Source of the DNA: Acidimicrobiales bacterium
GTDB taxonomy: Bacteria > Actinomycetota > Acidimicrobiia > Acidimicrobiales > Acidimicrobilacustridaceae
Length of the DNA stretch: 20,836 nt
Direction: 5' to 3'
Assembly: GCA_025456085.1 (NCBI GenBank)
Contig: JALOLF010000084.1
Location: 1-20,836, forward strand
Positions within the stretch are counted from its first letter, which is position 1. Each line of letters begins with the position of its first letter. The position numbers were made by a program, and so were the translations under genes. The notes beneath the pieces are model-generated. The model saw only the letters and a list, made by a program, of their open reading frames with translations. It searched no databases and was not told the origin of the DNA. Below are positions 1,125 through 12,870 of the stretch, one piece after another.

Positions 1125-1634
1125 GTGGCCCTTGACGACCTCGCCGCCATCCGGCTCGTGCTGACCGACTTCGACGGCGTGCTCACCGACAACCGCGTGC
1201 TCGTCGACCAGGACGGCCGCGAGGCGGTGTTCTGCAACCGGGCCGACGGGCTCGGGTGCGACCTGCTGCGCGCCGCCGGCATCGAGGTGCTGATCGTGTC
1301 GACCGAGACGAACCCGGTGGTGGCGGCGCGTGCCCGCAAGCTGCGCGTCGGCGTGTTGCAGGCGGTCGACGACAAGGCCGCCGCGGTGGCCGGGCTGCTG
1401 GCCGAGCGGGGCCTGCGGCCCGAGGAGGCGCTGTTCATCGGGAACGACGTCAACGATCTCGGCGCCCTGACCACGGTCGGGGTGGCGGTGTGCCCGGCCG
1501 ACGCCCACGCCGACGTGCGGGCGGTGGCGGCGCACGTCACGGGGGCCGTCGGCGGCAGCGGCGTGCTGCGCGAGGTCACCGACCTCCTGCTGGCGGCACG
1601 CCGTGCCGCGACGCCTGACGGGACCGGCACATGA
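1125..1634 (+). CDS. HAD-IIIA phosphatase, KdsC family (ulosonic/nonulosonic acid phosphate phosphatase-like)
   Basis: In-frame GTG at 1125 with GGGAG at 1110-1114. The HAD motif I (LVLTDFDGVLTD) and the GNDVNDL motif match KDO-8-P, KDN-9-P and Neu5Ac-9-P phosphatases. The stop TGA 1632-1634 overlaps the next ATG (ATGA). The track ORF 474..1634 carries a junk N-terminal extension. Confidence 0.8.
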   Translation: MALDDLAAIRLVLTDFDGVLTDNRVLVDQDGREAVFCNRADGLGCDLLRAAGIEVLIVSTETNPVVAARARKLRVGVLQAVDDKAAAVAGLLAERGLRPEEALFIGNDVNDLGALTTVGVAVCPADAHADVRAVAAHVTGAVGGSGVLREVTDLLLAARRAATPDGTGT

Positions 1635-3556
1635 GCGCCGCGCCGCACTCGGCATCCGAGCCGACCCCGGGCGCCACTCCCGTCGGACGCCCCGAGCCAC
1701 CCCCGAGCACCACGCCCACCACAGACGCCGCGCGCGGCGATCGCGGCGATCACGGCGGCGGAACGCTCGAGGTGCTCGCGCTCGTCACCGCCCGCGGCGG
1801 CTCGAAGGGGCTACCCCGCAAGAACGTGATCCCGGTGCTCGGCCGGCCGCTCATCGTCTGGACCATCGGGGCGGCTCTGCGGGCCGAGACCGTCACCCGC
1901 GTCGTCGTGTCCACCGACGACGACGAGATCGCCGAGACGGCCCTGGCGGCGGGCGCCGAGGTGCCCTTCCGGCGGCCGGCGGACCTGGCCGGCGACACGG
2001 TGCGAGACCTGCCCGTGTTCCGCCACGCCCTCGAGTGGCTGCGCGACGCCGAGGGCTACACGCCCGACCTCGTGGTGCACCTGCGACCCACCTCCCCGGT
2101 GCGCCCGCCCGGCCTCGTCGACCGGGGCGTGCGCCGTCTGGCCGCCGAACCGGGGGCGGACTCCCTGCGGGTGGTCTGTGAGCCGGCGAACAATCCCTTC
2201 AAGATGTGGCGCATCGTCGACGACCGTCTCGTACCCCTCGTCGACTCGGGCATCCCCGAGCAGTACAACGAGCCCCGCCAGGCCCTGCCCACCGTCTACT
2301 GGCAGATCGGCGTGCTCGACGTCATCCGCCCCGCCACGATCCTCGAGCAGGGCTCCATGTCGGGCCGGGTGATCCTGCCGCTGGTGGTCGACGCCGCCCT
2401 GGCGGTGGACATCGACGACGCCTCCTCCATCCCCCGAGCCGAGGAGGCGCTGCCGAGGATCTCGCATGAAGCGCCGCCGCCGCTCGGCCGCCCCCCTCGC
2501 CGGGGAGGGCGCGTCGTGATCGCGGTGGTGGGCTCGGGCTCGGTGGCCCGCCGACACCTCACCAACCTGCTGGCCCTGGGCCGACGTGACCTGCTCGTGG
2601 TCAGCGAGCAGCGCACCGGCTCGTCGCTCGACCTCGACGGCGTCGAGGTCCCCCTGACCGCCGACCTCGACGACGCGCTCGAGCGGGCGACGGAGGGGGT
2701 GGTCGTGGCGAACGTGACCTCACGGCACCTCGACACAGCGGCCCGGGCCGTGCAGGCGGGTCGCCACGTGTACCTCGAGAAGCCGGCGTCGGTGTCGGCC
2801 CACGGCGTCGACGAGCTCGACGCCCTCGCCCGGGCACAGGGCGTGACCGTGGCCGTCGGCCAGCAGCTCCGCTTCCACCCGCTGGTGCTGGCACTGCGCG
2901 ACCTCGTGACCGGCGAGCGCCTGGGTCCCCTGCTGGCGGTGCAGGCCGAGCTGGGTGAGCACCTCGCCGACTACCACCCCGACGAGGACCACCGGCTCGG
3001 CTACGCCGCCCGACGCGAGCTGGGCGGCGGCGTGCTGCTCACCCAGATCCACCAGGTCAACGTGCTGCACTGGCTCCTGGGAGCCTTCGACACGGTGGTG
3101 GCCAGTGGTGGGAACACCGGCAGGCTCGGCATCGACGTGGAGGACACCGTCGACTACCTGGCCGTCCCCCGCAGCGATACCCCGGGCAGCGGCACCCCGG
3201 GCGGCGACGCGCCGACCCCGGGGCCGGTGGTGCACGGGCACCTCGACTACCTGCAACGCCCCAAGGTGTGGACCGTGACCGTCCTCGGCACGCTCGCTCG
3301 GGCACACCTCGACCTGCACGCCGGCACCCTCACCGTGCTCTCGCAGACCGGCACGGCCGACACCATCCCCGTCGAGCAGGACCGCAACGCCCTGTTCGTG
3401 GCCGCCCTGGAGGACTTCTTCGCTGCGCTCGCCGAGGGCCGGCCACCCCGGTGCACGCTGGCCGAGGCGACCACGGATCTCCGACTGGTCGACGCCATCC
3501 GTCGCTCGATGCGGTCGCACCAGGTCGAAGCGATCCAGCGCGAGGATGCGCCATGA
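1631..3556 (+). CDS. fusion protein: N-terminal CMP-sugar (acylneuraminate/Kdo-type) cytidylyltransferase domain + C-terminal Gfo/Idh/MocA-family NAD(P) oxidoreductase domain
   Basis: Single 641-aa frame with no internal stop. Residues around 50-275 carry LALVTARGGSKGLPRKNV..LGRPLI (CTP_transf_3, the NeuA/KdsB signature). Residues around 290-640 carry VVIAVVGSGSVARRHL...YLEKPASVS (Gfo/Idh/MocA Rossmann fold and EKP motif). ATGA overlap with the upstream gene. The roughly 45-aa Pro/Thr-rich N-terminus makes the start uncertain (alternative GTG at 1772). Confidence 0.8.
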   Translation: MSAAPHSASEPTPGATPVGRPEPPPSTTPTTDAARGDRGDHGGGTLEVLALVTARGGSKGLPRKNVIPVLGRPLIVWTIGAALRAETVTRVVVSTDDDEIAETALAAGAEVPFRRPADLAGDTVRDLPVFRHALEWLRDAEGYTPDLVVHLRPTSPVRPPGLVDRGVRRLAAEPGADSLRVVCEPANNPFKMWRIVDDRLVPLVDSGIPEQYNEPRQALPTVYWQIGVLDVIRPATILEQGSMSGRVILPLVVDAALAVDIDDASSIPRAEEALPRISHEAPPPLGRPPRRGGRVVIAVVGSGSVARRHLTNLLALGRRDLLVVSEQRTGSSLDLDGVEVPLTADLDDALERATEGVVVANVTSRHLDTAARAVQAGRHVYLEKPASVSAHGVDELDALARAQGVTVAVGQQLRFHPLVLALRDLVTGERLGPLLAVQAELGEHLADYHPDEDHRLGYAARRELGGGVLLTQIHQVNVLHWLLGAFDTVVASGGNTGRLGIDVEDTVDYLAVPRSDTPGSGTPGGDAPTPGPVVHGHLDYLQRPKVWTVTVLGTLARAHLDLHAGTLTVLSQTGTADTIPVEQDRNALFVAALEDFFAALAEGRPPRCTLAEATTDLRLVDAIRRSMRSHQVEAIQREDAP

Positions 3557-4404
3557 GCTCCGGGAGCACCGCCGACCTGTTCGACCTCACCGGGCGGCGC
3601 GCCATCGTGACCGGTGGGGCCGGCCTGCTCGGCCGGGTGTTCGCCCGGGCGCTGCTGGACGTGGGTGCCGAGGTGCACCACCTCGACCGGGACGAGGGCC
3701 GCCTCGAAGAGGTGCTCGCCGCACTGCCCGACGATCTGCGCCGCCGAGCCGTGGCCGTGCGCTGCGACCTCACCGACGAAGACGACGTCGAAGCCACCGT
3801 GGCTGCGCTCGCCCGCCAGGGACGCATCGACATCCTGGTCAACTCCGCTGCCATCGACCCCAAGTTCGACGGCACCGCGGCGGGCGGCGCCGGCCCCGAC
3901 GCGCCCGACGACGGCCATCTCACCCGCTATCCCGTCGATCGGTGGCGCCAGAGCCTCGAGGTGAACCTCACCGGCGTGTTCCTCATCACCCGATCGGTGT
4001 GCCGGGTCATGCAGACCCAGGGCGAACGGGGCGAGGGCACCGTCGTGAACCTGTGCTCGACCTACGGTCTGGTCGGTCCCGACCAGCGGATCTACGACGG
4101 GGCGCCCACCCCGTTCTTCAAGCCGGTCGACTACTCGGTCACCAAGGCCGGCCTGCTCGGCTTCACCCGGGCGGTGGCCTCCCTCTACCGGGACAGCGGC
4201 ATCCGGGTGAACGCCCTCAGCCCCGGCGGGGCCTTCGACGACCACGACCCGGCCTTCGTGGCCGCCTACTCGTACCGCACGATCACCGGACGCATGGCCG
4301 ACCCCGACGAGTATCGTGGCGCCATCGCGTTCCTGTGCAGCGACGCCTCCTCCTACATGACCGGCGCCAACCTGGTCGTCGACGGAGGCTGGACGGCCCT
4401 CTAG
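3553..4404 (+). CDS. short-chain dehydrogenase/reductase (classical SDR) oxidoreductase
   Basis: ATG 3553 overlaps the upstream TGA (ATGA). TGGAGLLG Rossmann motif, YSVTK catalytic Y-x3-K, and C-terminal NLVVDGGWTA. 283 aa. Confidence 0.85.
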   Translation: MSSGSTADLFDLTGRRAIVTGGAGLLGRVFARALLDVGAEVHHLDRDEGRLEEVLAALPDDLRRRAVAVRCDLTDEDDVEATVAALARQGRIDILVNSAAIDPKFDGTAAGGAGPDAPDDGHLTRYPVDRWRQSLEVNLTGVFLITRSVCRVMQTQGERGEGTVVNLCSTYGLVGPDQRIYDGAPTPFFKPVDYSVTKAGLLGFTRAVASLYRDSGIRVNALSPGGAFDDHDPAFVAAYSYRTITGRMADPDEYRGAIAFLCSDASSYMTGANLVVDGGWTAL

Positions 4405-4448
4405 CAGCCCCTGCCAGCACCCCTGCCCCCCCTGCAGCCCTGCATCCC
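4405..4448 (+). repeat. C-rich degenerate CCCTGC-type short direct repeats in intergenic leader
   Basis: CAGCCCCTGC CAGCACCCCTGC CCCCCCTGC AGCCCTGC directly after the SDR stop and about 60 nt upstream of the NeuB-like start. CTGC recurs four times at 9-12 nt spacing. Confidence 0.4.
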
Positions 4449-4505
4449 ACGGTGACCCGAGTGACGGCGAACGACATCCTCCCCACGAGCCCGAGGCCGG
4501 CGCCG

Positions 4506-5393
4506 ATGCTCATCGCCGAGGTGGGCTGCAACCACCTGGGTGATCTCGACGTGGCCAAGCGGTTTATCGAGGTGGCGACCTCCTTCTGCAACGTGACCAC
4601 CGTCAAGTTCCAGAAGCGCGACGTCGCCACCCTGCTGACCGAGGAGCAGCGCAACGCCCCCCACCCGGCGCCGCACAACTCCTACGGCCCCACCTACGGC
4701 GAGCATCGGGAGTTCCTGGAGCTCGACCTCGACCAGCACCGGGAGCTGAAGGAGGCGTGCGAAGCCCGCGGCGCCACCTACACCTGCTCGGTGTGGGACG
4801 CGCCCAGCTTCGAGGAGATCGCCTCGCTCGAACCCGAGCTGATCAAGATCCCGTCGGCCAGCAACACCAACCCCGACCTGCTGGAGGCGGCGTGCCGGCA
4901 CTTCCCCGGGCCGATCCACATCTCCCTCGGCATGACCACCCGCGCCGAGGAGGCCACCATCGTCGAGGTGTTCCGGCGTCACGGTCGCCTCGGCGACCTG
5001 GTGCTCTACGCCTGCACGTCGGGCTATCCGGTGCAGCCCGCCGAGGCCTACCTGCTGGAGATCCTGCGGCTGCGCGAGGCCTACGGCGCCGAGGTGGGGG
5101 GCATCGGCTACTCGGGACACCACAACGGGATCTCGCTCGACCTGGTGGCCTTCACCCTCGGCGCCGACTACCTGGAACGGCACTTCACCCTCGACCGGAC
5201 GTGGAAGGGCACCGACCACGCGGCCTCCCTCGAGCCCGACGGGCTGCGGCGCCTGCGCCGCGACCTGGACTACGCGGCGCAGGCGCTGCAGGCCCGGCCC
5301 ACCGAGATCGTGGAGGTGGAGCGCCCCCAGCGGGCGAAGCTCAAGTGGCTGCGGGGCAACGTGGGCGCGTCGCCGGCGGCGGGCTCGCACTGA
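4506..5393 (+). CDS. N-acylneuraminate (nonulosonic acid) synthase family protein, NeuB-like PEP-condensing TIM-barrel; C-terminal SAF/antifreeze-like domain apparently absent
   Basis: ATG 4506 gives MLIAEVGCNHLGD, the classic NeuB/PseI/LegI N-terminal motif, and the TIM-barrel body follows (KIPSASNTN, GYSGHH). The product is only about 295 aa and its C-terminal 50 aa do not resemble a SAF domain. An alternative upstream GTG lies near 4461. Confidence 0.8.
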   Translation: MLIAEVGCNHLGDLDVAKRFIEVATSFCNVTTVKFQKRDVATLLTEEQRNAPHPAPHNSYGPTYGEHREFLELDLDQHRELKEACEARGATYTCSVWDAPSFEEIASLEPELIKIPSASNTNPDLLEAACRHFPGPIHISLGMTTRAEEATIVEVFRRHGRLGDLVLYACTSGYPVQPAEAYLLEILRLREAYGAEVGGIGYSGHHNGISLDLVAFTLGADYLERHFTLDRTWKGTDHAASLEPDGLRRLRRDLDYAAQALQARPTEIVEVERPQRAKLKWLRGNVGASPAAGSH

Positions 5394-5420
5394 CGCCCGG
5401 GCTGCGACGACCGCTCCGTG

Positions 5421-5433
5421 ACGGGAATCCCGT
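5421..5433. promoter_or_regulatory. 13-bp perfect palindrome ACGGGAATCCCGT upstream of the 5488 gene
   Basis: Seen directly: ACGGGA-A-TCCCGT, flanked by a CCGTGAC direct repeat. It shares the GGAATCC core with the 17-bp palindromes at 7407 and 7469. Confidence 0.3.
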
Positions 5434-5437
5434 GACA

Positions 5438-5479
5438 GGCACGCCGCGACCGGCACCTCCCGGCGGGCACGCCGCGACG
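5438..5479. repeat. direct repeat GGCACGCCGCGAC x2 (about 28-bp spacing) in the promoter region of the 5488 gene
   Basis: aGGCACGCCGCGACCGG at 5437-5453 and gGGCACGCCGCGACGG at 5465-5480, both within the 94-bp intergenic region. Confidence 0.35.
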
Positions 5480-5487
5480 GCGGCGCC

Positions 5488-7383
5488 GTGACCGAGACCC
5501 TGGTCCACCTCGACGTCGACCCCGCCGACGCCTCGCTGCTGGCGCTGCTGCGCGCCCGGGTGGGCGCCGGCGCGCGGCTCGCGGTCCCCGCCGGCACGGC
5601 ACTCGACGGGGAATGGGCCGGGCCGGTGGTGACGGTCACCGGCCGGGCCGCGTTCTCGATCCTCGACGACACGGACCGACTGGTCGAGACGCTCATCGAC
5701 ACCGCACGCACCCGGGGCGCGGACGAGGACCTGCTGGCCGCGCTGGAGGCGGCCCGCTTCCCCCTGGCCGTGGCGCTGGCACCGGACTGGCACCGCTGGC
5801 GGACCGTGAGCCGGCTCATCGCCGAGCACCGACCCCGGCGGCTGGTGGTGGTCTCGTCGTCGATGCGATCGCGTCGCGACGCCGCCCGGTTCGCCCGGTC
5901 GTTCCCGGGCGTGGCGGTGGAGGTGCTCGACGTCCGGACCCGCGGCGCCCGGCTGGAGCGCTGGCGGCAGCGGATCCACGCAGCCCGGGTGCACGCCGAG
6001 TCCCGGGTGCACGCCGAATCCGCCCGTGGCGGCGCGGCGCCCCACGACCGGCCCGTCGTGGCCTTCGTGGAGTTCTTCCCCAACAACCTCAAGGCGTCGC
6101 TGCCCGTGGCCGGGGCGCTGGCCGAGCACCACGGCCTGCGACCGATGTGGATCGCCTGCCGCCGGGCCGTCGTCGATGCGCTCGCCGACGCGGATGCCCT
6201 CGGGGGCACGCGCGCGACCGACGACGTGGTCACGGCGCCCGCGACGCTGGAGCTGCCGCCCGACCCGTTGCTCCACCGCGCCACCGCGCGGCGCCTCACC
6301 GCTGCCGGCCTGCGCGACGCGGTGCGCGCCTTCGCCACCGGGTTCCCACCCCCTCCCGGAACTCGGGCGGATGGATGCCGGAGACCGACCTCGGAGGACC
6401 CGATTTCGGAGCTTGTGCGGGCGGGGGCGCGGGCGCGGGCGGGGGTGGTGGACCCGTGGCTCGTGCCCACCGTGCGCCGTCATGCCGTCGTCACGGCGGC
6501 GGGCGGCGAGCGGTGGCGGCGCTGGCTCGCCGAGACGATCACCGGACTCGATGCCCGGCTCGTGGTCGTGACCACGCCCTACGACCTGACCGCTCGCGCC
6601 GGCGTCGTGGCAGCCCACCGCGTCGGTCTCCCCACGGCGTGGATCCAACACGGCATCTACAACCCCCGCCACGCCCACCGCAGCATCGACGTGGACCTGG
6701 CACTGCTGTGGGGCGAGTACGAGGCCGCCGACCTCCGGGACCGGCAGCCTCCGATCGGCGAGATCGCGGCGGTGGGCTCCCCGGTGCACGATCCCCTCGC
6801 CGTCCATCGAGCCGTGCGGGCGCAACGGCGCTTCCCCGCCGAGGGCGAGCCGCTGCGGGTGACCTATCTGGCCTCCCACTCACGGTGGTTCTACACGCTC
6901 GACGACGCGGCCCGGGCGACGTCGGTGGTGTGCGAGGCCGCGTCCCGGCTTCCCGACGTCGAGCTGACCGTCAAGTGCCATCCGCACGACGACACGGGCG
7001 TCCCCGAGGCCGCGGCGGGTCCCTTCCCGGGCGTCGTGGTGGTGCGCCATGGCGACAGCCGGGAGCTCACCGTCGCCTCCGACTTGGTGATCGTGCGGGA
7101 TTCGACAGCCGGCTACGAGGCCTGCATGGCCGACGTCGCGCTCCTGGAGCTCGAGATCGGCGAGCGGGTGCTCGACTTCTCCTACACCCACCTCGGAGCG
7201 GCCCGACCCGTGCGCAACGCCGACGACATCGTCGCTGCTGTGCGGGACCTGCGCGAGGACCCTGCGGCACGTGCGGCCCTCGCCGCGGGGCGGGAGCGGT
7301 TCCGGGTCCACCACCTCCACGGCGGCCACGGCGACGCCGCCACGACCGCCGCCGACCAGCTGGCGCGCCTCCTGACGCGCTGA
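5488..7383 (+). CDS. putative TagF/KpsC-like GT-B polymerase or transferase (K-x-HP motif); function unknown
   Basis: 631-aa frame with normal composition, whereas the overlapping alternate frames are Arg/Gly/Pro junk. The C-terminal third carries RVTYLASHSRWFYT ... LTVKCHPHDD ... DLVIVRDSTAGYEACMADVALLE. This resembles the acceptor-binding, HP and nucleotide-binding motifs of CDP-glycerol glycerophosphotransferases and KpsC/KpsS-like transferases. GTG start at 5488. Confidence 0.55.
   Translation: MTETLVHLDVDPADASLLALLRARVGAGARLAVPAGTALDGEWAGPVVTVTGRAAFSILDDTDRLVETLIDTARTRGADEDLLAALEAARFPLAVALAPDWHRWRTVSRLIAEHRPRRLVVVSSSMRSRRDAARFARSFPGVAVEVLDVRTRGARLERWRQRIHAARVHAESRVHAESARGGAAPHDRPVVAFVEFFPNNLKASLPVAGALAEHHGLRPMWIACRRAVVDALADADALGGTRATDDVVTAPATLELPPDPLLHRATARRLTAAGLRDAVRAFATGFPPPPGTRADGCRRPTSEDPISELVRAGARARAGVVDPWLVPTVRRHAVVTAAGGERWRRWLAETITGLDARLVVVTTPYDLTARAGVVAAHRVGLPTAWIQHGIYNPRHAHRSIDVDLALLWGEYEAADLRDRQPPIGEIAAVGSPVHDPLAVHRAVRAQRRFPAEGEPLRVTYLASHSRWFYTLDDAARATSVVCEAASRLPDVELTVKCHPHDDTGVPEAAAGPFPGVVVVRHGDSRELTVASDLVIVRDSTAGYEACMADVALLELEIGERVLDFSYTHLGAARPVRNADDIVAAVRDLREDPAARAALAAGRERFRVHHLHGGHGDAATTAADQLARLLTR
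5986..6021 (+). repeat. 18-bp tandem duplication inside the CDS (encodes RVHAES RVHAES)
   Basis: CGGGTGCACGCCGAGTCC followed by CGGGTGCACGCCGAATCC, one mismatch. Confidence 0.6.
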
Positions 7384-7406
7384 GCCGCCGCTGCAACCGC
7401 GGCCCG

Positions 7407-7423
7407 CTGTCGGAATCCGACAG
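7407..7423. promoter_or_regulatory. perfect 17-bp palindrome CTGTCGGA-A-TCCGACAG (candidate operator or RNA hairpin)
   Basis: 8-bp arms around a single central A, read directly from the sequence. Confidence 0.35.
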
Positions 7424-7468
7424 CCCACCGCCGAACCAGCGTCCACGCCGCACTGGAAACCCGCCCCG

Positions 7469-7485
7469 CTGTCGGAATCCGACAG
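7469..7485. promoter_or_regulatory. second copy of the perfect 17-bp palindrome CTGTCGGAATCCGACAG
   Basis: Identical to 7407-7423 and lies 158 bp upstream of the SPFH gene start. Confidence 0.35.
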
Positions 7486-7623
7486 TCCACCGCGGAACCA
7501 CGCTGGGCACGCGGCTCCTCCTGGACACGCGGTAAACCCGCCGGGCCGCGCCCTGTGCCGCGATCGACCGCTACTACACTGCCCGTCTTGTGCCCGGGCG
7601 GGGAACGGGTCCCGCCTGCGCGC

Positions 7624-7630
7624 GAAGGAG
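7624..7630 (+). promoter_or_regulatory. ribosome-binding site (GAAGGAG) of the SPFH gene
   Basis: GAAGGAG sits 12 nt upstream of ATG 7643. Confidence 0.5.
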
Positions 7631-7642
7631 CGATCGATCCAC

Positions 7643-9115
7643 ATGCCGGACAAAGACGAGGCCTCCGAGCCGTCCCCGGGGGCGGGCCGTCCCGACGAGT
7701 CGCCGGGTGGCACCGCCGACGCACCCGCCACGCCCCCCACGCCACCGGCCCCGGCTGCGCAGACCCCGCCGACCGTCCCCCAGCCCCCCGCCCCCGCCCC
7801 CGCCGCAGCCGCGGCCGCGGCCGGCCCGACGCCAGAGGGCGAGCCCACAGCGCCCCCGGTGACCGCTCCCGCCGGCGACGCGTCCGGCCCGCAGGCGCCA
7901 ACCGAGCCGGGCGAGCAGCTCCCCCGTCCCAAGAAGAAGGCCGCCAAGAAGGCCGCTGCCAAGCGCACCGCTCCACTTCTGCACACCCCCGAGCCGCCCA
8001 CCACGGAGGTGCCACCGGTCAAGGTGAGCTGGCGGGGCATCGCCGACGACGCCCCCGAGAAGCCCGCCAAGCGCAGCGGCGTGCTGGCTGCGGTCGGCCG
8101 GGGCGTCGCCGCGCTCCTCGAGGCGATCGGCCTCAAGCGCAAGCGCAACGCCGACGGCAGCCTCCAGCCCCGTGCGTGGAAGCGGCTCGGCATCGTCGGC
8201 GGCAGCGCGGTGGTCGTGCTCTTCCTGTGGACGATGGTGCACATCGTGCCGGCCGGTTCGGTGGGCGTGCCCATCACCCTGGGCAAGGCCGGCGGCGAGC
8301 TGGGGCCGGGCCTGCAGCTCACCGTCCCCTTCACCCAGGTCAAGACGATGTCCACCCGGACCCAGAACTACACCATGACCGCCATCCAGGGCGAGGGCCA
8401 GTATGCCGGCGACGACTCCGTGGCCGTGCTGGGCCGCGACGGCGGCGCGGCCAACGTCGACGCCACCGTGCTGTTCCGCCTCGACCCCGGGGAGGCCACC
8501 CGGGTCTACGAAGAGGTCGGCACCGACTTCCCGACCAAGCTGGTGCGCCCCGCGGCGCGCACGTGCATCCGCGCCGCCTTCACCAAGTACGACATGGTCG
8601 AGGCCGCCACCAGCGCCTGGGAGCCCATGGCCGACGAGATCTCGGACTGCATGCGGGAACGGATCGAGCCCCGCGGCATCCAACTGCTGGACTTCCAGCT
8701 GCGTGAGGTCCGCCTGGCCGACCCGGTCCAGCAGGCCATCGACGCCAAGGTCGCCGCGCAGCAGCAGGCCGAGCGTCAGCGCTTCGAACGCCAGACGGCC
8801 GAGCAGCAGGCCGACATCTCCCGCATCAACGCCATCGCCACCGCCGACTCCCAGCAGATCCTGGCCTGTGGCGGCACCGTCACCACCGTCGAGAAGGACG
8901 GCCAGCAGGTGCAGGTGGTGACCCCCAACCCGACCGAGCAGTGCGACCAGGCCCAGCTCACCCCGCAGTACCTGCAGTACACCTACATCCAGGCGCTGAA
9001 GCAGCTCGTCGACTCGCCGAACAACTCGACCATCATCCTGCCGATGGACCAGAACCTGACGCCGCTGCTGAACATCGACGGCACCACGGCCACCACCACG
9101 GCGCCCGGCGGCTGA
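7643..9115 (+). CDS. SPFH/band-7 (prohibitin/HflC/flotillin-like) membrane protein with a long Pro/Ala/Thr-rich disordered N-terminal tail
   Basis: Strong RBS. About 190 aa of low-complexity sequence (PATPPTPPAPAAQTPP...KKKAAKKAAAKR) is followed by a TM helix (LGIVGGSAVVVLFLWTMV). The SPFH core (VPAGSVGVPITLGKAGGELGPGLQLTVPFTQVKTMSTRTQNYT ... VLFRLDP) and a Gln/Ala/Glu-rich coiled-coil C-terminal region follow. Confidence 0.85.
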   Translation: MPDKDEASEPSPGAGRPDESPGGTADAPATPPTPPAPAAQTPPTVPQPPAPAPAAAAAAAGPTPEGEPTAPPVTAPAGDASGPQAPTEPGEQLPRPKKKAAKKAAAKRTAPLLHTPEPPTTEVPPVKVSWRGIADDAPEKPAKRSGVLAAVGRGVAALLEAIGLKRKRNADGSLQPRAWKRLGIVGGSAVVVLFLWTMVHIVPAGSVGVPITLGKAGGELGPGLQLTVPFTQVKTMSTRTQNYTMTAIQGEGQYAGDDSVAVLGRDGGAANVDATVLFRLDPGEATRVYEEVGTDFPTKLVRPAARTCIRAAFTKYDMVEAATSAWEPMADEISDCMRERIEPRGIQLLDFQLREVRLADPVQQAIDAKVAAQQQAERQRFERQTAEQQADISRINAIATADSQQILACGGTVTTVEKDGQQVQVVTPNPTEQCDQAQLTPQYLQYTYIQALKQLVDSPNNSTIILPMDQNLTPLLNIDGTTATTTAPGG

Positions 9116-9118
9116 GCA

Positions 9119-9140
9119 CCGTCCCCGCCGGCGAGGACGG
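9119..9140. terminator. short GC hairpin after the SPFH stop (possible terminator)
   Basis: CCGTCC-ccgccggcga-GGACGG: a 6-bp stem with a 10-nt loop, 4 nt after TGA 9113-9115, in convergent intergenic space with no U-tract. Confidence 0.25.
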
Positions 9141-9180
9141 CCGGACGTCGGCGACCAGACGTCGACGACCGGACGTCGGC
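9141..9180. repeat. 12-bp perfect direct repeat CCGGACGTCGGC x2 with GACGTC palindromic cores
   Basis: Copies at 9141-9152 and 9169-9180, with GACCAGACGTCGACGA between them. The second copy abuts the wzt stop codon. Confidence 0.4.
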
Positions 9181-9974
9181 TACATGTCCTCGGCGGCGGT
9201 GGCCTCGTCGAGGACGCCCTCGAAGCGCAGGTAGGCGTCGACCACGTCGGGAGCGGGGCCCTCGGCCATCACCCGGCCCTTGTCGAGCCACAGGCACCGG
9301 TCGGCGAGCGACGAGATGATCCGCACGCCGTGGGTGATGATCATCACGGTGCAGTCGCGCTCGCACAGCTCGCTGATCTTGTCCGAGGACTTCTTCTTGA
9401 AGCGGGCGTCACCGGCGGCCAGAGCCTCGTCGATGAGCACGATCTCGGGGTCGAGGTGCACCGCGACTGCGAACCCGAGCCGGGCCGACATGCCCGAGGA
9501 GTAGGTGCGCATCGGGTAGTCGATGGCGTCGGCCAGCTCCGCGAAGGCCACGATGGCCTGGTACTGCTCCTGCACCTCCTCAGGGGCGAGGCCCATGGCC
9601 AACCCGCCGAGCAGCACGTTCTCGCGGCCGGTGAGCTCCCGGTTGAAGCCGATGCCGAGAGAGAACAGCGGCGTGACGTGGCCCCGCACGACGACACGAC
9701 CCTCGCTCGGGGTGAGGATGCCGCAGATGGTGCGGAACAACGTGGACTTGCCGGCGCCGTTGCGGCCGATCACGCCGCACACCGAGCCCCGCTGCACGGT
9801 GAAGCTCACCCCCCGCAGGGCCTCCACGTAGCGGGTCACCTTGCGTCGTTGGGTCATGCCCACGAGCGTGCGCTTGAGCGTGGCCTCCTGACTCGAGCGG
9901 TAACGCAGCCAGAGGTCCTGCACCTCGATGGTGGGTGGAACCGCCAGCGACGCGGTCTCAGAGTCGAACGGCAA
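9180..9974 (-). CDS. wzt: ABC transporter ATP-binding protein, polysaccharide/teichoic-acid exporter type (Wzt/TagH/KpsT-like), without a C-terminal carbohydrate-binding extension
   Basis: Walker A GRNGAGKST, signature YSSGMSARLGFA, Walker B IVLIDEALAAGD, and H-loop ITH, across 264 aa. TAG stop at 9180-9182. The start is probably TTG at 9972-9974 (first in-frame start), which would overlap the wzm end by 17 nt, so the start is uncertain. Confidence 0.88.
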   Translation of the reverse strand: MPFDSETASLAVPPTIEVQDLWLRYRSSQEATLKRTLVGMTQRRKVTRYVEALRGVSFTVQRGSVCGVIGRNGAGKSTLFRTICGILTPSEGRVVVRGHVTPLFSLGIGFNRELTGRENVLLGGLAMGLAPEEVQEQYQAIVAFAELADAIDYPMRTYSSGMSARLGFAVAVHLDPEIVLIDEALAAGDARFKKKSSDKISELCERDCTVMIITHGVRIISSLADRCLWLDKGRVMAEGPAPDVVDAYLRFEGVLDEATAAEDM

Positions 9975-10809
9975 GGTCCCGCTCCCGACGCAGGAAGTAG
10001 AAGGCCCCCAACCCGAAGACGGCGACCGCGAAGACGGTCATCATGAACAGGCCCTTGGCGGTGGGGCCGTGCCCGGTGAAGATCAGCTCCAGCGAACCCA
10101 GGAACCAGTACATGGGGTTCAGCTTGAGGTACGGGGCGATGTTGGGCGGCACCTCGGACACGGTGAACAGCACCGGCGACACGTACAGCCAGATGCGCGT
10201 GGCGTAGGGGAGGATGTCGGACGCGTCCCGGAAGAACACCGTGACGGTCGAGGCCAGCAGGGCCAGACCCAGGTTGAACATCGTCAACAGCACCAGGATC
10301 AACGGCAGCCACAACAGCGCGGCCGTGATGGGCTGGCCCAGCAGCACGTGCAGCCCCATGTACACGACGAAGGTGGGCAGGAAGTCGAGGAAGGCCTCGA
10401 TCACGGCCACCAGGGGGAACACCAAGCGGGGCAACGAGGAGTTGAGCACGGTGTTGCGGTTGGACAGGATCGCCTTCGTCCCGCCCATGAGCGACGCCCG
10501 GGTGTAGCCGAAGAAGAACACGGCCATGATGAGGTGGGCGAGCAGCGCGTTGCGCTCGGCATCGGTGCCGATGGGACGCACCACGGTGCGCAGCAGGTAG
10601 TAGACCGCCGCCTCGAGGAGCGGATCGAGCACGATCCAGGCCTGGCCGATGACCGTGTCGTAGTGCTGCGCCTTTAGCTCGCTGCGCGACAGGTGCCACA
10701 TGAAGGCCCGGCGACCCCAGATCTCGCGCAGGTAGCGGTGCAGCGGCGGCAGACCGGTGTCGGTGGGCTCGTAGACGTGGACGGTGGGAGACGACGAGGG
10801 CTCGGCCAT
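9958..10809 (-). CDS. wzm: ABC-2 type polysaccharide exporter permease (Wzm/TagG/KpsM-like)
   Basis: About six hydrophobic TM segments (LLAHLIMAVFFFGY, LVFPLVAVIEAFLDFLPTFVVYMGL, ALLWLPLILVLLTMFNLGLALL, MMTVFAVAVFGLGAFYF). I chose the internal ATG (MAEPSSS, complement 10807-10809) over the track start at 10902, whose first 31 aa look like a non-coding extension. Confidence 0.82.
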   Translation of the reverse strand: MAEPSSSPTVHVYEPTDTGLPPLHRYLREIWGRRAFMWHLSRSELKAQHYDTVIGQAWIVLDPLLEAAVYYLLRTVVRPIGTDAERNALLAHLIMAVFFFGYTRASLMGGTKAILSNRNTVLNSSLPRLVFPLVAVIEAFLDFLPTFVVYMGLHVLLGQPITAALLWLPLILVLLTMFNLGLALLASTVTVFFRDASDILPYATRIWLYVSPVLFTVSEVPPNIAPYLKLNPMYWFLGSLELIFTGHGPTAKGLFMMTVFAVAVFGLGAFYFLRRERDLAVRL

Positions 10810-10903
10810 GGGGTGCACTGGCCCCGACCGGCTCGGCGCGCGGGCCAGCCGGGGAGGAGGGGTGGAGGTACGGTCAGGGTAGCCAACCGGGAGACCACGC
10901 ACG

Positions 10904-10922
10904 GGCCGGTTCGGGACCGGCC
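10904..10922. promoter_or_regulatory. 19-bp inverted repeat GGCCGGT-tcggg-ACCGGCC in the divergent wzm / lipoprotein intergenic region
   Basis: 7-bp perfect arms with a 5-bp spacer, about 95 bp upstream of the wzm start and 100 bp upstream of the lipoprotein gene start. Confidence 0.3.
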
Positions 10923-11021
10923 GCGAGCCTCCGATCGGCTGGGGTCGGCTAGGTTACGCGTTCAACGACGTCCGTCGCGCCGAGTCCCGCGCTCGATCCG
11001 GCACGCAGGAGATCCGATTCC

Positions 11022-11864
11022 GTGAAACGACCCCGCTCGGCACTGCTGCTCGCGCTCCGACTGCTGTTGGCGTGCACCGTGCTGTTGGCGGTTGCCGGGT
11101 GCAGCGACGACGAGGAGCCGACGTCGTCCGGCTCCCGGGGCACCGCCAGCGACGCCGCAACCAAGCCCACGGTCGGCGCCGGCGACCGGGCGACCACGGT
11201 GACCATCTACGCACCCGACCAGCTCCAGCGGGCCATGAACGAGCTCAAGGGCGGGTTCGAGTTCCTGACCGAGTACACCGTCGTGATCACGCAGGGCTCC
11301 GAGACCGACCTCATCGCCGGTGTGCAGGGCGGCGACCGACCCAACCTGCTCGTCGCCGACACCACCGAGCTCATGCCCCTCGTCGACAACGGCACGATCA
11401 TCGCCACCCCCACCGACTTCGGCACCGATCCCCTGCTGATGTTGACCGCCAAGGGCAACCCCGAGGGCGTCCCGGCGCAGATCGGGGTCTTCGGCGAGGG
11501 AAGCGCCTTCGTGACCGGCCTGTGCGCGCCGGACGTGCCGTGCGGCGCCGCGGCGCAGTCCGTGTTGCAGCAGGCCGGCGTCACACCAGCAGCCGACACC
11601 GTGGAGCCCACGGGTCGCCGACTCACCGACAATGTGGCCAAGGGCAAGGTCGACGTGGCGCTGGTGTTCCGCAGCGACTACATGAACCGGTTCTTCCGGA
11701 CCGGCGCGCTGGCGGATCCCGACTTCGCGCCCTACGTGATCACCTACGACATCGGCACCATCGAGGAGACCGACGCCTCCAAGGCCTTCCTCGAGTTCCT
11801 GGGCTCGATCGCCGGCCGCACGATCCTCGTGCAGCGGGGCCTCCTCCCGCTCGGCTCGGTGTGA
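11022..11864 (+). CDS. ModA/WtpA-like oxyanion (molybdate/tungstate/sulfate family) periplasmic-binding lipoprotein
   Basis: GTG start with AGGAGA at 11007-11012. Signal peptide plus lipobox LAVAG-C. The mature protein aligns by eye to ModA: VTIYAPDQL (like ITVFAAASL), GDRPNLLVADT (like GAPADLFISAD), KVDVALVFRSDY (like LGIVYGSDA), and a SKAFLEFL C-terminal segment. Confidence 0.7.
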   Translation: MKRPRSALLLALRLLLACTVLLAVAGCSDDEEPTSSGSRGTASDAATKPTVGAGDRATTVTIYAPDQLQRAMNELKGGFEFLTEYTVVITQGSETDLIAGVQGGDRPNLLVADTTELMPLVDNGTIIATPTDFGTDPLLMLTAKGNPEGVPAQIGVFGEGSAFVTGLCAPDVPCGAAAQSVLQQAGVTPAADTVEPTGRRLTDNVAKGKVDVALVFRSDYMNRFFRTGALADPDFAPYVITYDIGTIEETDASKAFLEFLGSIAGRTILVQRGLLPLGSV

Positions 11865-11877
11865 GCACCGGCCGCTG

Positions 11878-12870
11878 ATGGGGACCGACTCAGCCGCGCT
11901 GGCGGGCCGAACCGCCGTGTGCGTCACCGGCATGCACCGCAGCGGCACCTCCTTCGCGACCCGGGCCGTGCAGTTGCTGGGCGTGTCGTTGGGAGACCCC
12001 GAGCGCCTCATGCCGCCGGGACGGGACAACCCGAGGGGCTACTTCGAGAACGCCCGCGTCAAGGAGCTCGACGACGAGATCCTCGCCCACCTCGACGGAT
12101 CGTGGGACGCCCCACCGGTGCTGGCACCGGGCTGGGAGCTCGACGCGGGCCTCGACGAGCTGCGGGCACGGGCGGCAGCCGAGCTGGCCGAGACCTTCGC
12201 CGCCACGCCCCCCGGTGAGCCCATCGGCTGGAAGGACCCCCGGCTGTCGCTGCTCCTGCCCCTGTGGCGCACCGTCTCGCCCATCTCCACCACCATCGTG
12301 GTGGTGCGCGACCCGGCCGAGGTGGCGGCGTCGCTGCACACCCGCAACGGCATGCCCCCGGCGCAGGCTGCCCTGCTGTGGTTGCGCTACCTGCTGGCGG
12401 CCACCACGAACGATCCCGGCCACCTGCTGGTGCGTCACCGGGACTTCTTCGAAGACCTCCCGACCACGCTGGCCCGCATCGCCACCCACCTCGCCCTGCC
12501 CGCACCGGACGAAGCGACGCTCGAGGCGGTGCGCGGCCACCTCGACCCGTCGCTGCACCACCACGACAACCGACGCTCCACCCAAGCCGCGTCCGCGCCG
12601 GCTGCCACCGCCCCGGCGGAGTCCGACCCGGCTGGAGCCGACCCGGTGACCCGTCTGGCGACGCAGGTGTGGAACGGCGGCGACGTCGACGTGACGCTGG
12701 TGCCCGAGCCGATGGCCGCCGCCGTCCGGGAGGGGTGGTTGCGACCGCCCGTCGACGGCGAGGCCTTGGCCCGGGCGCGGGCCAAGGTGGTGGAGCTCAC
12801 CGAGGAGATCCGCCGTCGCAACCGGGAGAAGGCCGCGGCCAGGGCCGCGGCCCGGGGCGGGACGGGGTGA
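11878..12870 (+). CDS. sulfotransferase family protein (Sulfotransfer_3/Stf0-like; PAPS-dependent)
   Basis: 5'-phosphosulfate-binding P-loop VTGMHRSGTSF and the GWKDPRLS motif. 330 aa. ATG 11878 lies 13 nt after the lipoprotein stop. Confidence 0.75.
   Translation: MGTDSAALAGRTAVCVTGMHRSGTSFATRAVQLLGVSLGDPERLMPPGRDNPRGYFENARVKELDDEILAHLDGSWDAPPVLAPGWELDAGLDELRARAAAELAETFAATPPGEPIGWKDPRLSLLLPLWRTVSPISTTIVVVRDPAEVAASLHTRNGMPPAQAALLWLRYLLAATTNDPGHLLVRHRDFFEDLPTTLARIATHLALPAPDEATLEAVRGHLDPSLHHHDNRRSTQAASAPAATAPAESDPAGADPVTRLATQVWNGGDVDVTLVPEPMAAAVREGWLRPPVDGEALARARAKVVELTEEIRRRNREKAAARAAARGGTG

Follow-up and report, generated by a model that had tools for sequence, protein, structure and literature searches.

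Organization of the gene cassette

Our in silico analysis of the window (the whole stretch of 20,836 nucleotides under study, from an uncultured member of the Acidimicrobiales) located a tightly packed group of genes on the forward strand between positions 1125 and 5393. These genes encode, in this order, a HAD phosphatase, a cytidylyltransferase, an oxidoreductase of the Gfo/Idh/MocA family (GFO), an SDR, and a PEP-condensing NeuB-family synthase; all five had been named in a preliminary description of this DNA, and domain searches recovered each of them. ATGA overlaps join the HAD gene to the cytidylyltransferase gene and the GFO gene to the SDR gene, and the third-position GC content amounts to 0.9-1.0 in the reading frames of the cassette, which is a translationally coupled unit.

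The preliminary description had further claimed that genes for NeuC, PseB/C, LegB/C, an aminotransferase, or an acetyltransferase are absent, and this holds for every coding-like ORF of the 20.8-kb window and for 5.4 kb of upstream DNA in a sibling contig (L001). Neither a glutaminase nor a NanE/NeuC-type enzyme was found in the window.

Synthase and phosphatase of a probable phosphorylated Kdn route

The synthase gene (4506-5393) codes for a protein of 295 amino acids when counted from the ATG at position 4506, with alternative GTG start codons at 4452 and 4461. The protein matches PF03102 (1.2e-59) and lacks a SAF domain. Over its full length (284 residues), it is 52% identical (E-value 4e-100) to the characterized Kdn-9-P synthetase of Prymnesium parvum. 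The preliminary description had named a firm grouping with PseI/LegI-type enzymes, together with PseB/PseC-type genes just outside the window, as the outcome that would favor a Pse/Leg pathway. The identity of the window protein is only 26% with PseI and 28% with NmNeuB (26-32% when 6NCS is included), and its NCBIfam scores fall far under the NeuB and PseI equivalog cut-offs. An NJ tree calculated without bootstrap values places it in a compact clade of SAF-less enzymes that includes the P. parvum enzyme and is well separated from NmNeuB, PseI, and 6NCS. The members of this clade, the window protein included, have 86 near-invariant positions in common.

The P. parvum enzyme converts only Man-6-P, and uses neither ManNAc-6-P (0% conversion) nor Ara-5-P nor free sugars. 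Since the window synthase possesses all clade-invariant residues of this Man-6-P-specific enzyme, Kdn-9-P is its expected product. It seems improbable that it would instead condense ManNAc-6-P, or an amino- or oxidized hexose-6-P furnished by the GFO and SDR proteins, to Neu5Ac-9-P or to another 9-phosphorylated nonulosonate. The human enzyme accepts Man-6-P and ManNAc-6-P alike (PMC6200933, Table 2), and the synthases linked to the GFO and SDR genes form a subclade of their own in the same bootstrap-free NJ tree, but a single alignment position is all that sets this subclade apart. Such substrates are also difficult to reconcile with the inability of the P. parvum enzyme to convert ManNAc-6-P and with a window devoid of aminotransferase, glutaminase, acetyltransferase, and NanE/NeuC-type genes.

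The HAD protein (1125-1634; 169 amino acids) is a member of the KdsC/C0 family and is of the Kdn-9-P phosphatase type. KdsC is its top NCBIfam match by score (3.3e-31; 108 bits versus a cut-off of 208), and the model for Kdn-9-P phosphatase (KDN-9-PPhBT) is matched as well (1.9e-27; 96 bits versus a cut-off of 180). The HAD protein is 38% identical to BT1713, the Kdn-9-P phosphatase of Bacteroides thetaiotaomicron, and 3MMZ is its top PDB match (3e-40). It possesses Glu56, Arg64, and Lys67 as does BT1713, for which the mutants E56A and E56A/K67A are represented by the PDB entries 4HGQ and 4HGR; KdsC has Arg56 and Asp or Ser at position 67. These three residues are kept in the window protein and in 62 of the 63 HAD proteins linked to the synthase clade.

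An eight-carbon Kdo-type pathway, in which arabinose-5-P is condensed with PEP, dephosphorylated by a KdsC-like phosphatase, and activated by a KdsB-like enzyme, would be in line with the leading KdsC score and with weak NCBIfam matches of the cytidylyltransferase to KdsB. We regard it as very unlikely: KdsA, the Kdo-8-P synthase, belongs to another family than the NeuB-family enzyme encoded here, Ara-5-P is not used by the P. parvum homologue, the Glu at position 56 of the HAD protein replaces the Arg of KdsC, and NeuA-type structures match the cytidylyltransferase far better than KdsB does (7e-31 versus 8e-8).

Among 80 loci from many phyla that we compared on the basis of their related synthases, the synthase and HAD genes are neighbors in 62, lying within 3.5 kb of each other in 60 and within 1 kb in 53. 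This clustering is not due to chance. The two proteins are fused in one locus (L011), and in two others the HAD protein is fused to the cytidylyltransferase (L047, L069).

The cytidylyltransferase, GFO, and SDR proteins form a triad

The cytidylyltransferase domain (1631 to about 2480) is the N-terminal part of an ORF (1631-3556) in which CTP_transf_3 (PF02348; 5e-17) is followed by the N- and C-terminal domains of GFO_IDH_MocA proteins (1e-12 and 1e-9). In L001 and L002, two contigs nearly identical to the window, the cytidylyltransferase and the GFO protein are called separately, with 284 and 346 amino acids, respectively. The sole gap in the blastn alignment of the window with these contigs is a 16-nt deletion at 2451/2452, which shifts the frame past the stop codon of the cytidylyltransferase gene and is absent from the sibling contigs; the fusion results from this deletion. 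The GFO gene (2516-3556; PF01408, PF02894, PF22725) has retained its own GGAGG sequence and GTG start codon within the fused ORF.

The best NCBIfam match of the cytidylyltransferase is PseF (TIGR03584; 9e-33, under the cut-off), and its best PDB match is 6IFD (7e-31), compared with 1e-17 for NmNeuA, 1e-15 for PpNeuA, and 8e-8 for KdsB. The P. parvum CMP-Kdn synthetase matches it over 71 N-terminal residues only. It is 40% identical to its counterpart in a PtmE-GFO-CTP-SDR gene array on a Sulfitobacter plasmid, and the best tblastn matches of the GFO protein among 72,556 plasmids are likewise GFO proteins of GFO-CTP-SDR arrays (32-33% identity over the full length). The SDR (3553-4404; 283 amino acids; adh_short_C2, 1e-41) has NF006619 (PRK09186) as its best match among 222 NCBIfam SDR models (3.5e-48) and 6UH2 as its best PDB match (5e-33), and is 38-40% identical to the SDRs of the arrays found on plasmids of Rhodobacterales. 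The cofactor and catalytic motifs of both oxidoreductases are intact (GSGSVA and EKP in GFO; TGGAGLLG and YSVTK in SDR). 6IFD and 6UH2 were the models used for solving the structures of ElaB and ElaC, respectively. As judged from their sequences, the three proteins are a triad whose homologues are PtmB/PtmF/PtmA, to which family ElaB/ElaA/ElaC belong as well. This relationship lends support to the earlier suggestion that the presence of two oxidoreductases points to a sugar that is modified and possibly epimerized.

The same relationship could be read as a sign of a 5,7-diamino (Pse/Leg) pathway with early genes beyond the window, as the cytidylyltransferase, GFO, and SDR types are all known from Leg clusters and PseF is the top NCBIfam match of the cytidylyltransferase. 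We give this reading hardly any credence. The SAF-less synthase is too distant from PseI and NeuB, a 9-phosphatase would have no role in the synthesis of Pse or Leg because both are 9-deoxy sugars, and the dehydratase, aminotransferase, acetyltransferase, and NeuC genes are missing from the 20.8 kb and the 5.4 kb upstream. Furthermore, the self-contained five-gene cassette recurs in other phyla.

In 54 of the related loci, all without the triad, the synthase has next to it a cytidylyltransferase of the same type as the CMP-Kdn synthetase of P. parvum (37-47% identity). The window and nine other loci have the triad instead, with a cytidylyltransferase of the window type that is closer to Leg-type enzymes; the gene order of the cassette is conserved in L006-L011. 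Four loci possess a Leg-type cytidylyltransferase beside the synthase and neither GFO nor SDR, so that the type of cytidylyltransferase alone does not imply epimerization.

These four loci bear on the possibility, which we consider a serious if less probable one, that the same phosphorylated route ends at ordinary CMP-Kdn and that GFO and SDR leave the CMP-sugar alone. They might then supply or balance the precursor, for instance by converting fructose-6-P or glucose-6-P to mannose-6-P through redox steps, or modify another sugar of the glycan. Homologues of PtmA and PtmF are indeed counted among the enzymes of the first (precursor) segment of the Leg pathway; in the work of Schoenhofen (2009) and McNally (2007), those of Campylobacter were reportedly assigned to GlcN-6-P supply, and the product is said to have been Leg and not 8eLeg. 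The Man-6-P-specific signature of the synthase, with Kdn-9-P as the expected product, also speaks for ordinary CMP-Kdn, and no deaminated nonulosonic acid other than Kdn is known from the walls of actinobacteria. On the other hand, GFO and SDR always come as a unit with the swapped cytidylyltransferase, coupled in the window and in constant order in L006-L011, while the 54 canonical cassettes work without them. In addition, the presence of ElaA and ElaC separates 8eLeg from Leg clusters in Acinetobacter.

Putative transfer and export functions

The next gene after the synthase (5488-7383, forward strand) encodes a GT-B fold protein of 631 amino acids, a candidate CMP-nonulosonate transferase of the BFO_1060/TIGR04396 family. 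The BFO_1060 model is matched by 56 of 62 homologues of this protein, whereas the protein itself scores only 27 bits, with the cut-off at 200. In its family, the C-terminal GT-B half is conserved and contains an invariant HP motif, and its fold is equally close to UDP-GlcNAc 2-epimerases, MurG, and sialyltransferases; no D/E-D/E-G motif was identified in it. Nearby, on the reverse strand, are genes for an ABC exporter: a TagH/Wzt-like ATPase (9180-9974; PF00005; NCBIfam teichoic-acid export ATPase, 6e-57, and galactan export Wzt, 1.3e-56) and a Wzm/KpsM-like ABC-2 permease (9958-10902; PF01061, 4e-10; NCBIfam galactan Wzm, 2.7e-10, and KpsM, 1.6e-8). Their context points to glycopolymer export.

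Proposed pathway

We favor, with a probability of roughly 0.55, a reading in which the cassette makes a Kdn-type nonulosonic acid, free of nitrogen and activated with CMP, via a phosphorylated route, followed by a probable modification by the triad, transfer, and export. The preliminary guess of a phosphorylated Kdn route is supported by the similarity of the synthase to the P. parvum enzyme (52%), the Glu56/Arg64/Lys67 residues of the HAD protein, the synthase-HAD linkage, and the lack of Pse/Leg precursor genes. By its close homology to a characterized enzyme, the synthase would condense Man-6-P and PEP to Kdn-9-phosphate, from which the HAD protein would remove the 9-phosphate, as its specificity residues, conserved linkage, and fusions suggest. 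The cytidylyltransferase would then form the CMP-sugar. In what is the most tentative step of this scheme, GFO and SDR would most likely oxidize one hydroxyl group of the CMP-sugar and then reduce the resulting keto group from the opposite face; by analogy with CMP-Leg5,7Ac2, the site might be C8, and the outcome an epimer or keto derivative of Kdn. The GT-B protein may attach the sugar, as part of a polymer or as a cap, to a glycan. Neighboring GT2/GT4 enzymes probably build this glycan, which may also be sulfated and would leave the cell through the TagH/Wzm-type ABC transporter.

Comparison with known systems

The cassette has the logic of the Kdn route of P. parvum and B. thetaiotaomicron, to whose synthase and phosphatase (BT1713), respectively, we compared its enzymes: condensation of a sugar-6-P with PEP, dephosphorylation, and CMP activation. 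It differs from this known route by a cytidylyltransferase that is not of the P. parvum type and by the two added oxidoreductases.

The Streptomyces locus for teichulosonic acid, a Kdn polymer (SCO4873-SCO4882), is comparable in that it, too, serves a wall glycopolymer in an actinobacterium and includes a SAF-less synthase of the NeuB family together with a HAD protein of the KdsC type. This HAD protein is about 52% identical to that of the window, for which 3MMZ is the best PDB match. The identity of the Streptomyces synthase to those of the window and P. parvum, however, reaches only 34%, and the PF07388 polysialyltransferase-like gene of this locus has no counterpart in the window; the locus studied here is not an orthologue of the teichulosonic-acid cluster. 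In Streptomyces, a cytidylyltransferase-like sequence directly precedes the HAD gene and GFO and SDR are absent, whereas the window instead encodes a GT-B protein of the BFO_1060 family and an ABC exporter. The nonulosonic-acid transferases of Tannerella forsythia (Tanf_01245/TFUB4_00887/BFO_1060) represent a family related to the homologues of the GT-B protein through the C-terminal half and its HP motif; the window protein itself is a weak match (27 bits versus 200) without an identified D/E-D/E-G motif.

In prophages of Acinetobacter, EpaA, a cytidylyltransferase-reductase fusion, and the SDR EpaB convert Pse to 8-epi-Pse (8ePse). Their arrangement resembles that of the 1631-3556 ORF and the SDR gene, but the reductase domain of EpaA is an aldo-keto reductase, and the fusion in the window, with its Gfo/Idh/MocA domain, is due to the 16-nt deletion.

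ElaA/ElaB/ElaC of Acinetobacter baumannii KL49 and Vibrio vulnificus, a proposed C8 epimerase, correspond to PtmF/PtmB(LegF)/PtmA of the Leg clusters of Campylobacter, Plesiomonas, and Vibrio fischeri. On the basis of knock-outs, crystal structures, and docking, ElaA (GFO) and ElaC (SDR) have been proposed to oxidize CMP-Leg5,7Ac2 at C8 and then to reduce the 8-keto product. The window contains the same three adjacent families (Gfo/Idh/MocA, CTP_transf_3, and SDR), which we liken to Ela by these families and by their closest structures, 6IFD and 6UH2; the PtmE-adjacent GFO-CTP-SDR arrays on Rhodobacterales plasmids are 33% (GFO), 40% (CTP), and 38-40% (SDR) identical to it. The gene order is GFO-CTP-SDR in the Ela/Ptm triads and CTP-GFO-SDR in the window. 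The Ela/Ptm triads sit with Leg precursor enzymes (LegB/C/H/G, PtmE), whereas the triad of the window accompanies a Kdn-9-P synthase and phosphatase, so that its substrate would bear hydroxyls instead of N-acetyl groups at C5 and C7, plus a 9-OH. With the usual CMP-Kdn synthetase replaced by an epimerase-like triad, the product may thus be an epimer or keto derivative of Kdn, possibly an undescribed isomer.

Organization of the gene cluster

The real reading frames of the contig (20,836 bp, about 73% G+C, from the metagenome-assembled genome [MAG] of an uncultured member of the Acidimicrobiales) were picked by their third-position GC content. On the forward strand, a gene for a KdsC-family HAD phosphatase (1125-1634) is followed by a single ORF in which a cytidylyltransferase domain precedes a Gfo/Idh/MocA oxidoreductase (GFO; 1631-3556), by an SDR gene (3553-4404), and by the gene for the NeuB-like protein MCU0269969.1 (4506-5393, with alternative starts at 4452 and 4461). 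Since ATGA overlaps connect the HAD gene with that of the cytidylyltransferase and the GFO gene with that of the SDR, the genes form an operon. The five-gene cluster that the preliminary description had placed at 1125-5393 is thus present, and the absences reported there hold as well: neither the window nor the preceding 5.4 kb, which the near-identical sibling contig L001 covers, contains a gene for NeuC, a dehydratase, an aminotransferase, or an acetyltransferase.

The synthase groups with a characterized Kdn-9-P synthetase

The NeuB-family protein ends after its NeuB domain at 295 amino acids; PF03102 (1.2e-59, residues 39-280) is its sole domain, and it possesses no SAF domain. In place of the latter it carries a basic C-terminal tail (QRAKLKW), and R276, K278, L279, and K280 are near-invariant in its clade. 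The residues that it has in common with NmNeuB and PseI include E5, N9-H10, K34, Q36, K114, S117, S140, Y174-P175, S203, H205, E224, H226, and D237. Overall identity to these proteins is low (28% to NmNeuB, 26% to PseI, and 32% to 6NCS), and its relatives in the PDB are distant, with 6NCS as the best match (2e-25), followed by PseI and NmNeuB (about 1e-15). Scores against the NeuB model TIGR03569 (167, cut-off 400) and the PseI model TIGR03586 (119, cut-off 340) stay far below the thresholds, and both matches end at about position 270 of 329 model positions.

A much closer relative is the Kdn-9-P synthetase of P. parvum (CAMPEP_0191217894), whose sequence we took from the supplement of PMC6200933 and with which the window protein shares 52% identity across 284 residues (E 4e-100). 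The P. parvum enzyme, identified via its similarity to the B. thetaiotaomicron Kdn-9-P synthase BT1714 (Q8A711), condenses Man-6-P and PEP to Kdn-9-P and shows zero conversion of ManNAc-6-P, Ara-5-P, and free sugars (Wagstaff et al., 2018; PMC6200933). Homologues of about 290 amino acids with 55-72% identity to the window synthase are abundant in many phyla. In a neighbor-joining tree of 80 related genomic loci and reference enzymes, the window synthase and the P. parvum enzyme fall into one tight clade, far from NmNeuB, PseI, and 6NCS. Across this clade 86 positions are near-invariant. Among them are the catalytic and metal residues that NeuB also possesses, as well as several basic residues specific to the clade; only one position sets the subclade of the window protein apart. 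Since the synthase lies inside the P. parvum clade and far from PseI, clustering with PseI or LegI, which the preliminary description had named, together with PseB/PseC-type genes just outside the window, as the result that would favor a Pse/Leg pathway, was not found. By its sequence, the window enzyme is predicted to form Kdn-9-P from Man-6-P and PEP.

A Pse/Leg pathway was also rejected on wider grounds: in addition to the 26-28% identity of the synthase, a 9-phosphatase would be pointless in such a route and the precursor genes are absent from the window and the 5.4 kb preceding it.

Specificity residues of the HAD phosphatase

The HAD protein (1125-1634) is 38% identical to BT1713, the Kdn-9-P phosphatase of B. 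thetaiotaomicron from HAD subfamily C0, and its catalytic residues D10, D12, S/T54, K80, and N/D103-D104-D107 align with those of that enzyme. So do Glu56, Arg64, and Lys67; the KdsC proteins of H. influenzae and P. syringae possess R, R, and D/S at these positions. The Glu/Arg/Lys combination is present in 62 of the 63 HADs that adjoin synthases of the clade. PDB entries exist for the BT1713 mutants E56A (4HGQ) and E56A/K67A (4HGR), which mark residues 56 and 67 as those that the investigators of BT1713 probed. Together with Arg64, Glu56 and Lys67 reportedly set specificity, and we take Glu56 and Lys67 to be markers of Kdn-9-P versus Kdo-8-P specificity.

The HAD matches a KdsC model with 3.3e-31 and a BT1713-based Kdn-9-P phosphatase model with 1.9e-27, and it scores below the cut-offs of the Kdn-9-P phosphatase equivalog NF058599 (96.4 bits, cut-off 180), of the KdsC model NF007019 (108, cut-off 208), and of TIGR01670 (95, cut-off 107). 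Its best match in the PDB is 3MMZ, a Streptomyces-type protein (3e-40). A Kdo pathway was rejected because the synthase belongs to the wrong family and the HAD possesses Glu56, not Arg.

Linkage and fusion of synthase, phosphatase, and cytidylyltransferase

A KdsC-type HAD is encoded near the synthase in 62 of the 80 loci and within 1 kb of it in 53. In a Planctomycetota MAG (L011, 7986-9446), the synthase and the HAD are fused in one ORF of 486 amino acids. Fusions of a cytidylyltransferase with a HAD occur in Dysgonomonas (L069, 8878-10047; 389 amino acids) and, after a synthase of 290 amino acids, in a Lachnospiraceae isolate (L047, 8862-10007; 381 amino acids); animal CMP-sialic acid synthetases are laid out in the same way. 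Because of these fusions, the conserved neighborhood, and the specificity residues of the HAD, the phosphorylated Kdn route suggested by the preliminary description is well supported. Judged from sequence comparisons, the core of the cluster would combine CMP activation with a Kdn-9-P synthase and a Kdn-9-P phosphatase, which adds a further member to a pathway that is already known.

Two types of activation module accompany the Kdn core

In 54 loci, the synthase has a neighboring cytidylyltransferase that shares 37-47% identity with the characterized CMP-Kdn synthetase of P. parvum; these loci represent the canonical three-gene Kdn cassette of synthase, HAD, and CMP-Kdn synthetase. The window and nine other loci possess a different type of cytidylyltransferase, and GFO and SDR are always present in them. 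Carriers of this triad are Acidimicrobiia, other Actinomycetota, a gammaproteobacterial single-cell genome, a Planctomycetota MAG, and two Lachnospiraceae; the neighbors of a Lachnospiraceae triad are generic capsule genes only.

The triad of the window consists of adjacent CTP_transf_3, Gfo/Idh/MocA, and SDR genes (1631-4404). The best solved relative of its cytidylyltransferase is 6IFD (7e-31), ahead of NmNeuA (1e-17) and PpNeuA (1e-15), and that of its SDR is 6UH2 (5e-33; best NCBIfam model, PRK09186). PDB searches with the GFO yielded generic sugar dehydrogenases only. Among 72,556 plasmids, its best matches were GFOs within PtmE-GFO-cytidylyltransferase-SDR arrays of Rhodobacterales, to whose proteins those of the window are identical over the full length at 33% (GFO), 40% (cytidylyltransferase), and 38-40% (SDR) of positions. 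Cofactor-binding and catalytic motifs are intact both in the SDR (TGGAGLLG, YSVTK) and in the GFO (GSGSVA, EKP, and the conserved His in GGGVLLTQIH).

The triad has the same arrangement as the PtmF/LegF/PtmA genes listed for the Leg clusters of Plesiomonas, Vibrio fischeri, E. coli, and Campylobacter. Neither in the window nor in the conserved triad cassette did we find the Leg precursor genes (LegB/C/H/G, PtmE), and the substrate of the triad can therefore not be CMP-Leg. The same family arrangement is also that of ElaA, ElaB, and ElaC from A. baumannii KL49. In a 2026 structural study, ElaB was proposed to form CMP-Leg5,7Ac2, the GFO ElaA to oxidize its C8 hydroxyl group, and the SDR ElaC to reduce the 8-keto intermediate to the 8-epimer; that study used 6IFD and 6UH2 as search models for ElaB and ElaC, respectively, so that the PDB matches of the window proteins are the molecular-replacement models of their Ela counterparts.

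Four further loci (L014, L044, L046, and L050, from Rubritalea, a deltaproteobacterial MAG, a Firmicutes MAG, and Saprospiraceae) combine a Kdn-9-P synthase with a Leg-type cytidylyltransferase and possess neither GFO nor SDR. They are intermediate between the canonical and the triad cassettes.

The joined cytidylyltransferase and GFO genes

In L001 and L002, near-identical contigs from other assemblies, the cytidylyltransferase (284 amino acids) and the GFO (346 amino acids) are encoded by separate genes, and 16 extra nucleotides are present at the site corresponding to window position 2451/2452 (L001 7930-7946). The deletion of these 16 nucleotides in the window joins the two genes into one ORF of 641 amino acids, inside which a GGAGG and a GTG (at 2516) of the GFO itself are preserved. 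The fusion may thus be either a real strain variant or an assembly error. It is reminiscent of EpaA, a natural fusion of a cytidylyltransferase with a reductase. EpaA and the SDR EpaB are a pair related to the Ela enzymes that converts Pse to 8-epi-Pse, as NMR of the capsule has shown.

Proposed product of the pathway

The most economical reading of the cluster would be a module swap, in which a Kdn front end is joined to an Ela-type back end. GFO and SDR would then convert CMP-Kdn to an epimer, by analogy at C8, or to a keto derivative. That the two oxidoreductases point to a modified or epimerized sugar had been suggested in the preliminary description, and the homology of the triad to the Ela/Ptm systems speaks for this proposal. 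The epimerization itself is something we infer, because the Ela mechanism is itself a proposal, because PtmA and PtmF of Campylobacter have reportedly been assigned to precursor supply in an organism that makes Leg, because four loci carry the Leg-type cytidylyltransferase without the oxidoreductases, and because the triad was likened to Ela by way of the plasmid arrays and the search models 6IFD and 6UH2. We would give a probability of roughly 0.3 to the specific product suggested by this analogy, a stereoisomer of CMP-Kdn, tentatively CMP-8-epi-Kdn, for which the two-enzyme epimerization by oxidation and re-reduction that was proposed for CMP-legionaminic acid would have been moved onto the nitrogen-free Kdn pathway. 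The sugar in question, 8-epi-Kdn, is 3-deoxy-L-glycero-D-galacto-nonulosonic acid; the literature that we searched makes no mention of it as a natural sugar. If CMP-8-epi-Kdn is made, the back end would be a mobile one, with carriers among the Acidimicrobiia, Gammaproteobacteria, Planctomycetota, and Lachnospiraceae. To judge from the literature that could be searched, the combination of a Kdn core with an Ela/Ptm-type triad is an undescribed variant.

A candidate transferase and the glycan context

All remaining coding-like ORFs of the window were scanned for families. One of them encodes a protein of 631 amino acids with no Pfam domain (5488-7383). An exhaustive HMMER search of a representative library yielded 664 homologues, mostly of about 600 amino acids. 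The C-terminal half of this family is conserved, and the near-invariant residues are QHG, K496-x-H498-P499, and S539-T540-x-G-x-E. TIGR04396 matched 59 of 62 aligned members, and the "BFO_1060 family glycosyltransferase" model (NF046086) matched 56 of the 62; the window protein itself reached 27 bits, with a cut-off of 200. BFO_1060 is one of the transferases for Pse/Leg derivatives of Tannerella forsythia, in which CMP binding is ascribed to the conserved C-terminal half with its HP motif.

The AlphaFold model of the protein is confident and has a GT-B fold (pLDDT 89, pTM 0.90). UDP-GlcNAc 2-epimerases, MurG, and NeuC lead its structural matches; many GT-B glycosyltransferases come next, with TarL, WaaA, TagF, and the polysialyltransferase SiaD among them. 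Given such mixed matches, the fold alone does not decide the function. The leading positions of the 2-epimerases and NeuC would suit a cryptic NeuC-like 2-epimerase; this is the less likely interpretation, however, as the near-invariant residues, the HP motif included, are all confined to the nucleotide-binding C-terminal half and a model for nonulosonate transferases recognizes the family. The 631-amino-acid protein hence reads as a candidate transferase for the product of the cassette.

Between the candidate transferase gene and an ABC exporter lies the gene for an SPFH/band-7 protein (7643-9115), whose long N-terminal region is rich in Pro and Ala. The exporter is composed of a TagH/Wzt-like ATPase and a Wzm-like permease. 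Elsewhere in the window there are two bifunctional GT2+GT4 glycosyltransferases, a GT61 fragment, a SnoaL protein, and, at 11022-12870 and 16854-17606, a ModA-like periplasmic binding protein and two sulfotransferase-like genes. Taken together, the candidate transferase, the exporter, the GT2/GT4 proteins, and the sulfotransferases point to an ABC-transporter-dependent surface glycan, and the presence of sulfotransferase-like genes among glycosyltransferases and a TagH/Wzm-type exporter suggests that the exported glycan may be sulfated. The Kdn-type sugar could be either its repeating unit or a terminal cap. Three coding-like ORFs (12870-13742, 15886-16857, and 17603-19282) matched no family; the last of these encodes a multi-pass membrane protein, which might serve as a component of the polymerase or ligase type.

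Implications for bacterial Kdn biosynthesis

Kdn is the least studied sialic acid in bacteria, and B. thetaiotaomicron and one alga are, to our knowledge, the only organisms for which the phosphorylated pathway to it has been proven. Our data indicate that the trio of synthase, phosphatase, and CMP-Kdn synthetase is widespread and highly conserved in bacterial phyla and in at least one archaeon, and that there is a second version of the cassette, in which the activation step is swapped for an Ela/Ptm-type cytidylyltransferase and two oxidoreductases. Should this triad version lead to an epimer of Kdn, the nonulosonic acid family would gain a new member, and a clean test system, free of nitrogen, would be at hand for the disputed function of PtmA/PtmF-type enzymes. 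Should plain Kdn be the product, the locus would be a routine though well-defined annotation. The locus also hints that uncultured Acidimicrobiia possess wall glycans that are acidic and may be sulfated. Overall, the observation of the preliminary description is confirmed, and its interpretation is supported.

Comparison with the Streptomyces teichulosonic acid loci

S. coelicolor possesses a Kdn teichulosonic acid and a PhoP-activated cluster (SCO4873-4882) for it. Through the 3MMZ-type HAD we reached two Streptomyces loci (L086 and L087, about 5000-11700), in which a HAD and a SAF-less NeuB-family protein are encoded beside a PF07388 alpha-2,8-polysialyltransferase-like gene, a GT2 gene, and an acyltransferase gene; the HAD is directly preceded, in the same orientation, by a cytidylyltransferase-like sequence. 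Gene calls in these two loci appear truncated, and a reverse-strand call of 171 amino acids looks spurious.

Identity between the Streptomyces synthase and the enzymes of the window and of P. parvum is no more than 34%, and the window encodes no PF07388 protein. Orthology with the teichulosonic locus was rejected, since the synthases differ to this extent and the polymerase is a different one; the logic of the two loci is, instead, parallel. GFO and SDR genes are absent from the two Streptomyces loci. Streptomyces does not need the oxidoreductase pair for authentic Kdn, which is compatible with, though no proof of, a role of this pair in adding a modification.
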